NCBI GenBank assembly: GCA_964467255.1
Contig: CAYXPR010000003.1
Location: 79,530 to 143,529 of the forward strand
DNA length: 64,000 nucleotides
Direction of reading: 5' to 3'
From: an uncultured Rickettsiales bacterium
Lineage (GTDB): Bacteria; Pseudomonadota; Alphaproteobacteria; Rickettsiales; RGZB01
The translations under genes and the position numbers were made by a program. Shown in pieces: positions 52,815 through 59,422 of this stretch (positions within the stretch are counted from its first letter, which is position 1; every line of letters starts with the position of its first letter). The notes below the pieces were generated by a model, which was not told the DNA's origin, did not search any database, and was given only the letters and a program-made list of their open reading frames with translations.

Positions 52815-53963
52815 CTATTTTATTCCACAGATACGCGCTGTTTCCTGCGCGATCATCCACTGCTCGCGGGTTTGTGTTACTATCACTCGGACACGGGAGC
52901 CGGGGCGCTGAAGCTGCGGCGCTTCAAATTCTTCCAGCTTAATCTGCCGGTTTTTTTCCTCGTCGAGTTCCAGTCCCATGAATTCCAGCCCTTCGCAGAT
53001 GCGTGAACGTATTGAAGCCGAGTTCTCACCTATGCCACCGGTGAAGGCCAGCACGTCGCACCCGCCCATCGCGGCGGCATAGGCGCCGATATATTTCCGT
53101 ACCCGGTAGGCATAGACCTCAATGGCGAGCGTTGCTTTCGCATCACCCGCCGAAGCCTGACGCTCAATGTCGCGCATATCATTGCCGACGCCGGACAGTG
53201 CGACGAGGCCGCTTTCTTTATAAAGCGCGTTTTCGATTTGCTCGACTGTCAGACCGAGCATGCGTTTTAAATAAGCGAAGATGCCGGGATCGACATCGCC
53301 CGAGCGGGTGCCCATCACCAATCCTTCAAGCGCCGTCATGCCCATCGAGGTATCCACCGACCGCCCCCTATCAATGGCGCAGACACTCGCGCCATTGCCG
53401 AGGTGACAGCTGATAATGCGAAGATCGGCGGCAGGCGTTTTCAATTCCTCAGCCACACGCTGCATGACGTATTTATGCGAGGTGCCATGAAAACCGTAGC
53501 GCCTAAGCCCCATCTTTCTCCATGCTTCCGGCACGGCGTAGGTAAAGGCGCGTTCGGGAATCGTCTGGTGGAAGGCGGTGTCGAACACCGCCACCTGCGG
53601 CACATCCGGCCAGCGTTGGCGCGTCATGGCAATGCCTGCCAGGATAGGTGGATTATGCAGCGGTGCAAGCGGAGTATATTCCTCGATGATTTTAATCAGC
53701 TCATCGTCAATCAGCACCGCGTCCCTAAAATAATCGCCGCCATGCGCGACCCGATGGCCGATGGCTTTAATGTCCGTATGGCCCGCCTGATACAATTTTT
53801 CCGCTATCAGCCCCAGTGCCCCCTCGATGGAATCTACGCGCTCGATTTCGTCCTTGAACGACAGCGTGTCGCTGGCGAGATCGAACACGCTGAACTTGAC
53901 TGAGGAGCTTCCCGCGTTAATCACCAGGCATGGATACGATTTTACGCAGCATGGTGATGGCAT
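52815..53963 (-). CDS. ackA: acetate kinase
   Basis: 382 aa with VINAGSSSVKF, GHRVAHGG, RRYGFHGTSH and FTGGIGENS. Confidence 0.9.
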   Translation of the reverse strand: MPSPCCVKSYPCLVINAGSSSVKFSVFDLASDTLSFKDEIERVDSIEGALGLIAEKLYQAGHTDIKAIGHRVAHGGDYFRDAVLIDDELIKIIEEYTPLAPLHNPPILAGIAMTRQRWPDVPQVAVFDTAFHQTIPERAFTYAVPEAWRKMGLRRYGFHGTSHKYVMQRVAEELKTPAADLRIISCHLGNGASVCAIDRGRSVDTSMGMTALEGLVMGTRSGDVDPGIFAYLKRMLGLTVEQIENALYKESGLVALSGVGNDMRDIERQASAGDAKATLAIEVYAYRVRKYIGAYAAAMGGCDVLAFTGGIGENSASIRSRICEGLEFMGLELDEEKNRQIKLEEFEAPQLQRPGSRVRVIVTQTREQWMIAQETARICGIK

Positions 53964-55372
53964 GATTCTTTTTCCTTTCGGGTGGTGCGGCGTCCCCTCA
54001 CAACCAGTTGCGCCAAAGCACAGGATGCTTTGCGGGCGATGTCTCCGCTGGCGCGGCTGGTGAGGATGATCGGCACCTGTGCACCCATCACGATGCCCGC
54101 CATATGCGCACCGGAAAGCAGCACCAGTTGTTTGAGCATCATATTGCCGGACTCCAGATCCGGCATCACCAGTATGTCAGCCTTACCCGCCACCTGTGAG
54201 TGGATACTCTTGATCTCTGCGGCTTCCTCGGAAATAGCGTTATCGAAAGCCAGCGGCCCATCAAGCAGGGCGCCGGTAATCTGCCCGCGCTCGGCCATTT
54301 TGCATAGCGCGGTAGCATCAAGTGTCGAAGGAATGTCCTTGTTAACGGTTTCCACCGCCGAAAGTATTGCCACACGCGGAGCACGTTGTTCTACGGTCAG
54401 AAACAGATCGATGGCATTCTGCACGATGTCCTGCTTGACGGTCAAGTCGGGGGCGATATTGATCGCTGCATCGGTGACATAAAGCGGACGCGGAAACTTC
54501 GGAATATCGGCCATGAACACATGGCTCATGCGCCTGCCAGTGCGCAGACCGTTTTCCTTATCCATCACCGCGCGCATCAACTCGTCGGTGTGCAATTTAC
54601 CCTTCATCAAGGCTTCCACTTTGCCCTCACGAACCATCCGCACGGCTGTTTCCGCCGCCGCGTGGCTGTGTGGCGTGGCGATGATCGTATAAAGGGAAAG
54701 GTCGATTTTTTCCTCTTCGGCGACCGCTCGAATCTTCGCTTCCGGCCCAACCAGTAGGGCTTCGATAATGCCCGCTTTGGCAGCAGCGACAGCACCTTTA
54801 AGCGAGGGCGCGTCCACCGGATGCACCACCGCCACTTTCAGCGGCGGCAGCCCTTCGGCGAAACAAATCACGCGATGATGGTTCGGGCATTCCTCTTCCT
54901 TGAACTCGATTTCCGGCAGTCGTACACGCTTGCGCCGGACTTTTTCCGTGGGCGCGATGACCTCGGCGGTGCCGGTGATTACTTCCTTGCCATCCTGGTT
55001 TAGGCAGACGCAGGCTAATGTCAGGCGGTGTTTTTTATCGTCTTTTTTCGTCACCGTGACCCGCGCGGTAATGGTGTCGCCGATACCAACGGGCCGGAGA
55101 AAGTCAAAATCCTGATGCACGTAGATTGTTCCTGGCCCCGGCAGTTGGGTGCCAAGCACGGTGGAAATCAGCGAGCCGCCCCACATGCCGTGGGCTATGA
55201 TCTTATGGAACAGGTCGCTCCTTGCATATTCCTCGTCCAGATGCGCCGGGTTCACGTCGCCGGACATCACCGCAAACAGCTGTATATCCTTCTGCGTCAG
55301 CGTGTGCTCGACCGAGGCGGAATCGCCGACTTCGATCTCGTCGAAAGTTTTATTCTCAATAAATCCATCCAT
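53942..55372 (-). CDS. pta: bifunctional MaoC-like enoyl-CoA hydratase / phosphate acetyl(butyryl)transferase
   Basis: 476 aa. The N-terminal hot-dog region is FAVMSGDVNPAHLDEEYA...IAHGMWG. The C-terminal roughly 320 aa form a PTA_PTB domain (...ADILVMPDLESGNMMLK...). Confidence 0.85.
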   Translation of the reverse strand: MDGFIENKTFDEIEVGDSASVEHTLTQKDIQLFAVMSGDVNPAHLDEEYARSDLFHKIIAHGMWGGSLISTVLGTQLPGPGTIYVHQDFDFLRPVGIGDTITARVTVTKKDDKKHRLTLACVCLNQDGKEVITGTAEVIAPTEKVRRKRVRLPEIEFKEEECPNHHRVICFAEGLPPLKVAVVHPVDAPSLKGAVAAAKAGIIEALLVGPEAKIRAVAEEEKIDLSLYTIIATPHSHAAAETAVRMVREGKVEALMKGKLHTDELMRAVMDKENGLRTGRRMSHVFMADIPKFPRPLYVTDAAINIAPDLTVKQDIVQNAIDLFLTVEQRAPRVAILSAVETVNKDIPSTLDATALCKMAERGQITGALLDGPLAFDNAISEEAAEIKSIHSQVAGKADILVMPDLESGNMMLKQLVLLSGAHMAGIVMGAQVPIILTSRASGDIARKASCALAQLVVRGRRTTRKEKESCHHHAA

Positions 55373-58960: not shown

Positions 58961-59422
58961 TTAAGCCGCTTGCTTTGCCTTCTCTTTTTTGGCGCTCGGC
59001 TGACCTGGTTTTGCCAGTTCGGAAAACAACTCTGTGGCTCGCTTGTTAATAATCTTACCCGTTGCCGCACCGTGTTTTACCACCTTGTCGGCGAGTTCCT
59101 TGGAATCACTTAAACTGGATTCCACGGATTCCTTTACAAAATCGGCATGACAGGCGATTTTATCTTCCGGCTTTGCCGATGCGTCCGTCATCTCCGTGAA
59201 GAATTTTGCCAAGTGCTCAGCATTTTTCTGCACAATCTTTACCTGCTGACCGGAAAGGTCGTGCAGATGATCCAGGATAGATGCGCTAATATCGGTGAAA
59301 GCCCTAGCGTTTAACCGCCACACTTCAATATATTTGTCCACCCCCAGGCGGCTTGTAAAAGGAGTCTCCCCCGTCCACGTGGTGAAGAAATTGGAAAACA
59401 CATTTTTCTTGTTATCAGACAT
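58961..59422 (-). CDS. phasin-family PHA granule-associated protein
   Basis: 153 aa, helical and amphipathic, with a Lys/Ala-rich tail. Its stop abuts the phaC start. GGAG lies 9 nt upstream of the ATG. Confidence 0.6.
   Translation of the reverse strand: MSDNKKNVFSNFFTTWTGETPFTSRLGVDKYIEVWRLNARAFTDISASILDHLHDLSGQQVKIVQKNAEHLAKFFTEMTDASAKPEDKIACHADFVKESVESSLSDSKELADKVVKHGAATGKIINKRATELFSELAKPGQPSAKKEKAKQAA

Follow-up and report, generated by a model that had tools for sequence, protein, structure and literature searches.

What is a six-gene block that brings together polyhydroxyalkanoate (PHA), acyl-phosphate and polyphosphate enzymes doing in the small genome of an uncultured Rickettsiales bacterium? 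The block lies on the minus strand of the 64,000-nt stretch analysed here (the window; contig CAYXPR010000003.1, positions 79,530 to 143,529), where it spans positions 52815-59422. In the order of transcription, its genes encode a phasin, a PHA synthase-like protein (PhaC), an enoyl reductase (FabI), a PPK2, a MaoC hydratase fused to a phosphotransacylase (MaoC::Pta) and an acetate kinase (AckA). On balance, this is probably a low-oxygen survival operon, in which NADH is reoxidised and ATP is made from C4/C2 acyl-CoA derived from polyhydroxybutyrate (PHB) via acyl-phosphate, with polyphosphate also being used. The core phaC-fabI-(MaoC::Pta)-ackA is already known and is not new; what differs here is ppk2 and a leader carrying the phasin gene and an FNR-type box.

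The open reading frame (ORF) list and scans with Pfam and NCBIfam gave six intact co-directional ORFs (Table 1) with junctions of 0, 9, 36, 24 and -22 nt. On reading the sequence, each gene is preceded by a ribosome-binding site of its own. These genes and junctions agree with a previous annotation made from the sequence alone (the original prediction), with the start of phaC as the only revision. An ATG at 58948 behind a GAGGAG ribosome-binding site is more likely to be this start than the GTG that abuts the phasin stop codon, and the phasin-phaC junction thereby becomes 12 nt. Terminator-like sites are not in excess inside the block (7 found versus 9.6 expected in shuffled sequence). Matches to internal promoter and terminator consensus sequences are uninformative, since they do not exceed the shuffled expectation. 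Given the co-direction, the short junctions and the lack of a terminator excess, the architecture is operon-like, as originally proposed, and we infer that the six genes are co-transcribed. The region after ackA (52700-52830) folds no better than shuffles (z = -0.11), so a clear terminator cannot be claimed there.

Table 1 Genes of the operon and elements of its leader, in window coordinates
Feature	Coordinates	Strand	Support or remark
Phasin (Phasin_2)	58961-59422	minus	PF09361, 42.5 bits (cut-off 24.9)
PhaC-like, class-I-type PHA synthase	57083-58948 (ORF to 58960)	minus	PhaC_N, PHBC_N and Abhydrolase_1 domains
FabI, second copy, cluster-type (PRK07533 subfamily)	56303-57073	minus	NF005717, 416 bits
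PPK2 (ADP-polyphosphate phosphotransferase)	55397-56266	minus	NF042973, 514 bits (equivalog cut-off 450)
MaoC/PhaJ (R)-specific enoyl-CoA hydratase fused to phosphotransacylase	53942-55372	minus	NF006045, 722 bits
AckA, acetate/propionate-family kinase	52815-53963	minus	TIGR00016, 448 bits; 22-nt overlap with fusion gene
Perfect FNR/FixK-type palindrome TTGATAATTATCAA (TTGAT-N4-ATCAA)	59857-59870		441 nt upstream of phasin ATG
58-codon open frame in leader	59602-59778	minus	Frame and length kept in L121 and L122
Dyad CTTGAC-N11-GTCAAG	59468-59490		46-68 nt upstream of phasin ATG; candidate operator

The window contains every component of the four-gene core: a co-directional PhaC-like protein, a PRK07533-type FabI, a PRK08190-type fusion and an acetate-family kinase. 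We searched a genome collection with the fusion protein, which returned at least 589 relatives, and kept 80 loci for neighbourhood counts. The fusion gene is followed by ackA in 69 of the 80 loci, while fabI is present in 32 and phaC in 30 (upstream on the same strand in 26 of these 30). The full order phaC-fabI-fusion-ackA occurs in approximately 10 loci, which span Alpha-, Beta- and Gammaproteobacteria. Of the 401 Pseudomonadota genomes that we sampled, 64 encode a protein of this Pta family, about 29 of them in fused form. The cluster is often plasmid-borne, with 72 plasmid records that match the fusion protein at a coverage of 80% or more. The expectation that this gene order is conserved elsewhere is thus correct for the four-gene core, but the six-gene order is limited to two close relatives, the metagenome contigs L121 and L122, whose phasins are 90% identical to that of the window.

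Other genes recur around the cluster, namely those for universal stress proteins, a zinc alcohol dehydrogenase, phosphoketolase, a P2-type cation ATPase, a phaB-type reductase and an efflux pump of the RbbA type (RbbA/HlyD/outer-membrane). Genes for the ATP synthase A chain also recur near MaoC::Pta-ackA, in 9 of the 80 loci (including L046 and L053). A second, alternative F-type ATPase operon may therefore be linked to the module.

The encoded proteins appear to be functional. The operon FabI has a conserved Y-x6-K motif, and its sequence makes it a candidate NADH enoyl-CoA reductase. We rejected it as the housekeeping enzyme, because a separate FabI on contig C14, with 47% identity to the operon copy, matches NF006019 instead. 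For all seven cluster-linked FabIs that we sampled from three proteobacterial classes, NF005717 is the best model and leads by at least 100 bits. This shared match marks them as an orthologous subfamily that is dedicated to the cluster and moves with it. In the fusion protein, the hydratase half has the motif SGDVNPAH and its closest solved structure is PhaJ (5cpg). The Pta domain most resembles a phosphate butyryltransferase (7vg9, 223 bits), whereas the classical, acetyl-type Pta reaches about 50 bits. The sole other PTA_PTB domain in the genome is in a 799-residue frame on contig C18.

PhaC has the G-x-C-x-G-G box and Cys-Asp-His triad of class I PHA synthases: the GYCLGG Cys box, the Asp of RDHV and the His of GGHNAGI align with the corresponding positions of 9knj. 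Its score against TIGR01838 (530.4 bits) is under the curated class I cut-off (622.65), it shares 41% identity with the canonical PhaC encoded on contig C8, and NCBI names cluster-linked PhaC homologues “alpha/beta fold hydrolase”. The protein is best called a member of a divergent class-I-like subfamily, with predicted polymerising activity.

The last gene of the core appears to have been exchanged. AckA has the N-terminal nucleotide-binding motif LVINAGSSSVKF, and its N-terminal domain is roughly 25-30 residues shorter than that of 2iir. Its identity is 61% with the AckA portion of a paralogue encoded on contig C2, but only 36-41% with the ackA products of syntenic clusters in other taxa. 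This difference suggests that the original module kinase was displaced in place by a C2-like ackA, with the C2 locus as the likely source. The paralogue (C2:14915-16756, minus strand) is a 613-residue fusion of an acetate/propionate kinase and a PduL-type phosphate propanoyltransferase (NF011652, 228 bits). A divergent, stand-alone MaoC/PhaJ-like gene lies beside it (approximately C2:16918-17310, plus strand), so that this 2-Mb genome has a second set of hydratase, phosphotransacylase and kinase.

The upstream region of the operon contains a perfect FNR/FixK-type palindrome (Table 1). The 2.02-Mb genome has nine such perfect boxes, versus about 1.3 expected from base composition, and at least five of the nine are intergenic. 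The box lies in a block of approximately 70 nt that shows one substitution across L121 and L122; the box itself is unchanged and its flanks diverge. Of 78 related loci, 24 have an FNR-type box with at most one mismatch in the 450 nt upstream of the cluster's first gene. The density of such boxes is 0.70 per kb upstream of the cluster, compared with 0.088 in whole loci and approximately 0.22 in other intergenic DNA. This enrichment is only indicative, since the 78 loci span many genera but related genomes are not independent.

The genome also encodes candidate proteins that could read the box. Two FtrB/FixK-like Crp/Fnr regulators (C3:152014-152820 and C16 near 4620-4829) both have the E--SR (ETFSR) recognition helix. 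Both also have a C-terminal Cys cluster (CxxCx6C or CCxxCx5C), where E. coli FNR has an N-terminal one. The C3 regulator is encoded approximately 8.5 kb past the end of the window. One of the two is situated in a metal-resistance island, and another perfect FNR-type box occurs 520 nt downstream of its stop codon. The most likely promoter of the operon is one of the FNR/FixK type located upstream of the phasin gene, from which we infer oxygen control in this organism. Together with homologous operons that are bound by FnrL (PMC2908626) or induced by low oxygen (PMC3721108), the box here supports the proposal that the genes form a fermentative and reserve module linked to oxygen or energy.

The leader has further features. 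An Rfam scan of 52000-60400 with E-values up to 1 matched no RNA family, so a known riboswitch or small RNA is absent from the 690-nt leader. The dyad listed in Table 1 occurs just once in the window (0 expected from shuffled sequence), and both of its arms are conserved in L121 and L122, which show one spacer change. The 58-codon frame was not accepted as a gene. It has no homologue in the other related loci or elsewhere in the genome, homologues being limited to the close relatives, and its amino acid identity is 76% with a ratio of nonsynonymous to synonymous substitution rates (dN/dS) of 0.55. A 41-codon frame on the minus strand (59979-60104) directly follows the copA stop codon and has a GGAG ribosome-binding site. 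Its DNA is conserved in the nearest relative of the window locus, but the protein identity is just 49%, and it is a doubtful coding frame.

In this nearest relative, L001, the fusion protein is 93% identical to that of the window. In a nucleotide comparison, homology with the window extends across copA, phaC, fabI and fusion-ackA, with clean breaks. Two window segments have no counterpart in L001. One is 55389-56307 (ppk2) and the other is 58844-59935, which contains the first approximately 35 phaC codons, the phasin gene, the dyad, the 58-codon frame and the FNR box. Between its phaC and fabI, L001 instead encodes a true acetoacetyl-CoA reductase (TIGR01829, 323 bits). The contigs L121 and L122 are laid out like the window, with a P2-type ATPase, DUF2933, CopA, the 58-codon frame, the phasin, phaC, fabI and PPK2, and the six-gene form is therefore not an assembly artefact. 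The ppk2 gene is kept in L121 and probably in L122, whose contig ends inside ppk2 at the matching position. Between the window and L121, dN/dS is 0.10 for each of phaC, fabI and ppk2, which are under purifying selection, and 0.31 for the phasin gene. The synonymous divergence (dS) of the inserted pieces is 0.15-0.20, versus 0.41-0.50 for phaC and fabI, which fits a separate, more recent history of these pieces.

The phasin scores 27.2 bits against TIGR01841, under the cut-off of 30.2, and the GC content of its gene is 0.476, versus 0.56 for the neighbouring genes. It is a lineage-specific addition with a predicted granule-binding role. Homologues with 59-61% identity occur on four metagenome contigs, L124 (7221-8456), L125, L126 and L127, where they directly follow a phaB-type acetoacetyl-CoA reductase (TIGR01829, 332 bits). 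There, the phasin-phaB pair is inside copper-resistance islands (CusCBA, MerR, CusF, DUF2933 and CopA), with no PhaC nearby.

PPK2 is a single-domain protein with a conserved Walker A region (DAAGKDG). Among solved structures, it matches the class III enzymes 6an9/6au0 of Cytophaga hutchinsonii (292 bits) and 5lc9 of Meiothermus ruber (235 bits) better than the two-domain class II protein 3czp (200 bits) or class I proteins (83-115 bits; 83 for 3czq). It is therefore closest to class III, and is predicted to make ATP from AMP or ADP with polyphosphate. This is the only PPK2 in the genome. The gene is next to the module in 2 of the 80 related loci, both in Rhodopseudomonas, with the order ppk2-fabI-fusion-ackA and 72% identity. 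None of the 400 other sampled Pseudomonadota genomes has a PPK2 beside a Pta-family gene, and this PPK2 is absent from all four sampled genomes of the closest family in the same order. We therefore rejected ppk2 as an ancestral module member, given also its absence from L001 and a further locus, L002. The original prediction counted the gene among those of the module, but it is better described as a rare insertion of a single gene that came late.

The nearest homologues of this PPK2 (72-78% identity) are encoded on plasmids of Caballeronia, Rhizobium, Mesorhizobium and Polymorphobacter. Three of these plasmid loci were inspected, and in two of them ppk2 directly follows a P-type ATPase gene (L115:5676-8870 on a Rhizobium rhizogenes plasmid and L117:5215-8870 on a Polymorphobacter plasmid). 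These ATPases are of the HAD-IC or proton-efflux type, and in Polymorphobacter, where cydAB is upstream and ackA downstream, the PPK2 gene overlaps the ATPase gene. The pairing may represent a polyphosphate-fuelled ion pump. The plasmid ATPases are only approximately 30% identical to the P2-type ATPase of the window, so orthology is not claimed.

The surroundings of the operon are also mosaic. It adjoins a low-GC serine-recombinase island on one side and is preceded by the copA and P2-type ATPase genes on the other, which confirms its reported position between an integrative island and metal-resistance genes. Homology to L001 stops 26 nt past the ackA stop codon. The L001 region downstream of ackA is not syntenic with this genome, so an empty site of the adjacent island could not be demonstrated. 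The suggested horizontal acquisition is only partly supported: the mosaic operon and the frequent plasmid location of the module speak for it, but the GC content matches that of the host core.

The operon supplements a PHB cycle that is already complete. The genome (2.02 Mb in 38 contigs, 99.7% complete) has the canonical phaC on C8, adjacent phaA and phaB genes on C6, phaR on C17 and, on C25, the gene for an intracellular PHB depolymerase (phaZ). It also encodes PPK1 (on C6) and PhoB. It is thus correct that phaA, phaB and phaR are lacking in the window, but these genes, along with those for PhaZ, the canonical PhaC and PPK1, lie elsewhere in the genome, and the module is not self-contained, which had originally been suggested as one possibility.

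How might such an add-on work? When respiration fails, (R)-3-hydroxybutyryl-CoA would be supplied from PHB, or from acetyl-CoA via PhaA and PhaB encoded elsewhere. The MaoC domain would dehydrate it to crotonyl-CoA, which the dedicated FabI paralogue would then reduce with NADH, serving as the redox sink. The butyryltransferase-like Pta domain would turn the product into an acyl-phosphate, from which AckA would make ATP, and acetyl-CoA could share these last two steps. PhaC and the phasin would tie the CoA-ester pool to the PHB granule. The class-III-like PPK2 would recharge AMP and ADP from polyphosphate, such that a single transcript could mobilise both reserve polymers. The recurrent RbbA-type efflux pump would fit the export of acid. 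The substrate chain length, the direction of flux and the role of PhaC are presumed in this scheme. The presence of phaB in L001, in the Burkholderia lxa locus described below and in Sphingobium supports 3-hydroxybutyryl-CoA as the hub. NADH-dependent enoyl reduction is in effect thermodynamically one-way, and this favours the reductive, fermentative direction over assimilation.

Several points weigh against this function. A literature search found no paper assaying the hydratase-phosphotransacylase fusion or the cluster-type FabI. Since the unfused relative in Sinorhizobium meliloti is described as a phosphotransacetylase, the main substrates may be C2 compounds. The AckA of the window is a classical acetate/propionate-type kinase. 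The release of CoA esters from PHB by PhaC is not established, and PhaZ could give the free acid. The insertion of ppk2 may be functionally unrelated to the module. As to regulation, 54 of the 78 loci have no FNR-type box within 450 nt, and L001 and L002 hold the core without such a box. The distance between the box and the first start codon in the window implies a leader of approximately 400 nt, and the box could instead serve another transcript.

The same genes could run in the opposite direction, as in polyphosphate-accumulating organisms: under anoxia, ATP from PPK2 would let AckA and Pta activate external acetate or other short acids to CoA esters, which PhaC and the phasin would store as PHA. 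The reactions of Pta and AckA can run both ways, other loci of the genome provide PhaA and PhaB, and acid-activation, polyphosphate and polymerase functions are together in the operon. The papers on Halomonas and Burkholderia also favour acetate feeding into PHA. However, this direction gives no role to a conserved, dedicated FabI that is effectively irreversible and leads away from 3-hydroxyacyl-CoA. Moreover, PHB synthesis from acetate needs reducing power, which the module does not supply, and nearly all versions of the module are without ppk2. We thus consider the assimilatory direction rather doubtful. Control by PhoB, as in a phosphate-starvation operon of the S. meliloti type that makes acetyl-phosphate or releases phosphate from polyphosphate, is far less plausible. 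In its favour, the homologous S. meliloti operon is PhoB-induced according to the citation of that work in PMC8231600, PhoB is encoded in the genome, and PPK2 ties the operon to phosphate metabolism. However, no Pho box (CTGTCAT-N4-CTGTCAT, up to four mismatches) was found in the 690-nt upstream region (search range 59380-60150), where the FNR-type box is present instead, and we rejected PhoB control as the primary explanation on this basis.

It is also conceivable, but unlikely, that only the four-gene core is functional as a unit, and that ppk2, perhaps with the phasin gene, is a hitch-hiker whose actual partners are the neighbouring P-type ATPases and the metal-resistance island, serving ion-pump energy from polyphosphate or metal tolerance. 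The plasmid relatives of ppk2, which stand directly after P-type ATPase genes or alone, would fit such a juxtaposition, as would the phasin homologues in copper-resistance islands and the low dS of both inserted segments, which indicates a separate history. The window genome is also the only one of 401 with a PPK2 beside a Pta-family gene. Against this, ppk2 is embedded in the operon, with gaps of 36 and 24 nt on its two sides, a ribosome-binding site of its own and no terminator. Strong purifying selection acts on it, it is retained in L121 and probably L122, and Rhodopseudomonas independently has a 72%-identical ppk2 directly upstream of fabI-MaoC::Pta-ackA. We accordingly continue to prefer a low-oxygen survival operon.

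Aerobic Proteobacteria commonly carry the four-gene core, which experiments link to low oxygen and anoxic survival. If our interpretation is true, many strict aerobes own a hidden butyrate-type fermentation on stored PHB, running from (R)-3-hydroxybutyryl-CoA through crotonyl-CoA, butyryl-CoA and acyl-phosphate to ATP, which would explain their persistence without oxygen. The insertion of an apparently class-III-like PPK2 into the operon and its maintenance under selection argue that the currency of the module is ATP and adenylate charge. The window is a natural experiment in this respect, and variants with and without ppk2 give a simple genetic handle. More speculatively, and with a rather low probability in our judgement, ppk2 makes the common low-oxygen PHB module a compact two-polymer cassette, in which PHB-derived acyl-phosphate and polyphosphate feed adenylates from a single transcript under FNR control or, in reverse, ATP from polyphosphate drives the anaerobic uptake of short acids into PHA. 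In that case, a 2-Mb alphaproteobacterium would have a minimal, transferable form of the metabolism of polyphosphate-accumulating organisms, in either direction.

Gene clusters of this type have been described in several lineages. The synteny phaC1-fabI-bi-pta-ackA was described in Halomonas and Cobetia, and the PhaC1 of Halomonas SF2003, from the same cluster type, was reported to be a functional class I synthase (PMC8686332). Synteny including a phaJ-pta fusion was likewise described in group D1 of Burkholderia sensu lato (PMC8231600). In common with the window, these clusters have genes of all four families, the fusion of hydratase and phosphotransacylase, and the PhaC box GYCLG. They differ in having no ppk2, and were described only as synteny and read as an acetate feed into PHA, without regulatory analysis. 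In Herbaspirillum, phaC2 is reported to be in one operon with pta-ackA (PMC8222739). The S. meliloti operon orfA-pta-ackA-fabI is co-transcribed and PhoB-controlled (Summers et al. 1999, as cited in PMC8231600). As far as can be told from that citation, its Pta, AckA and FabI are of the same families, but Pta is apparently unfused and the first gene is not phaC; also, it has PhoB control, whereas the window operon has no Pho box. The phaC2 gene of B. diazoefficiens is a FixK2 target induced by microoxia (PMC10888616, PMC6515984), and PhaC2 was reported to be insufficient for PHB synthesis (PMC10888616); orthology to the window phaC is not claimed in either respect. Finally, the window PPK2 resembles class III PPK2 enzymes in being a single domain of about 290 residues and in its best solved matches, but its location inside an acyl-phosphate operon is an unusual setting.

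The two closest parallels with regulatory data come from Rhodobacter sphaeroides and Burkholderia cenocepacia. In R. sphaeroides 2.4.1, a chromatin immunoprecipitation (ChIP-chip) site of FnrL lies upstream of RSP1257-1254, an operon labelled “phbC fabI” and a direct target of FnrL (Dufour et al. 2010, PMC2908626). As in the window, a phaC-like gene is followed by fabI and more genes, and the FNR-type box is TTGAGcaagATCAA there and TTGATAATTATCAA here. Rhodobacterales loci in our related set have the order phaC-fabI-MaoC::Pta-ackA, with boxes at -58 to -76. The R. sphaeroides operon is without the phasin gene and ppk2, its box is near the first gene rather than 441 nt away, and the ackA of the window is of another subtype.

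In B. cenocepacia J2315, the lxa locus has an Anr/Fnr-like motif and is needed for anoxic survival (PMC3721108). At low oxygen, the PHA synthase is up 224-fold, the phosphate acetyl/butyryl transferase 116-fold, the acetoacetyl-CoA reductase 94-fold and the acetate kinase 75-fold, this 75-224-fold induction covering BCAM0293 and BCAM0296-0298 (PMC3721108). Unlike the window operon, lxa is a 50-gene island that includes phaB and an alcohol dehydrogenase, and PPK2 is not reported there. The two loci share, by comparison of descriptions rather than sequence subfamily, a PHA synthase, a phosphate acetyl/butyryl transferase and an acetate kinase (BCAM0293, BCAM0296-0299). Universal stress proteins, a cation ATPase, an alcohol dehydrogenase and ABC/outer-membrane transporters recur in lxa, as they do around the related loci.

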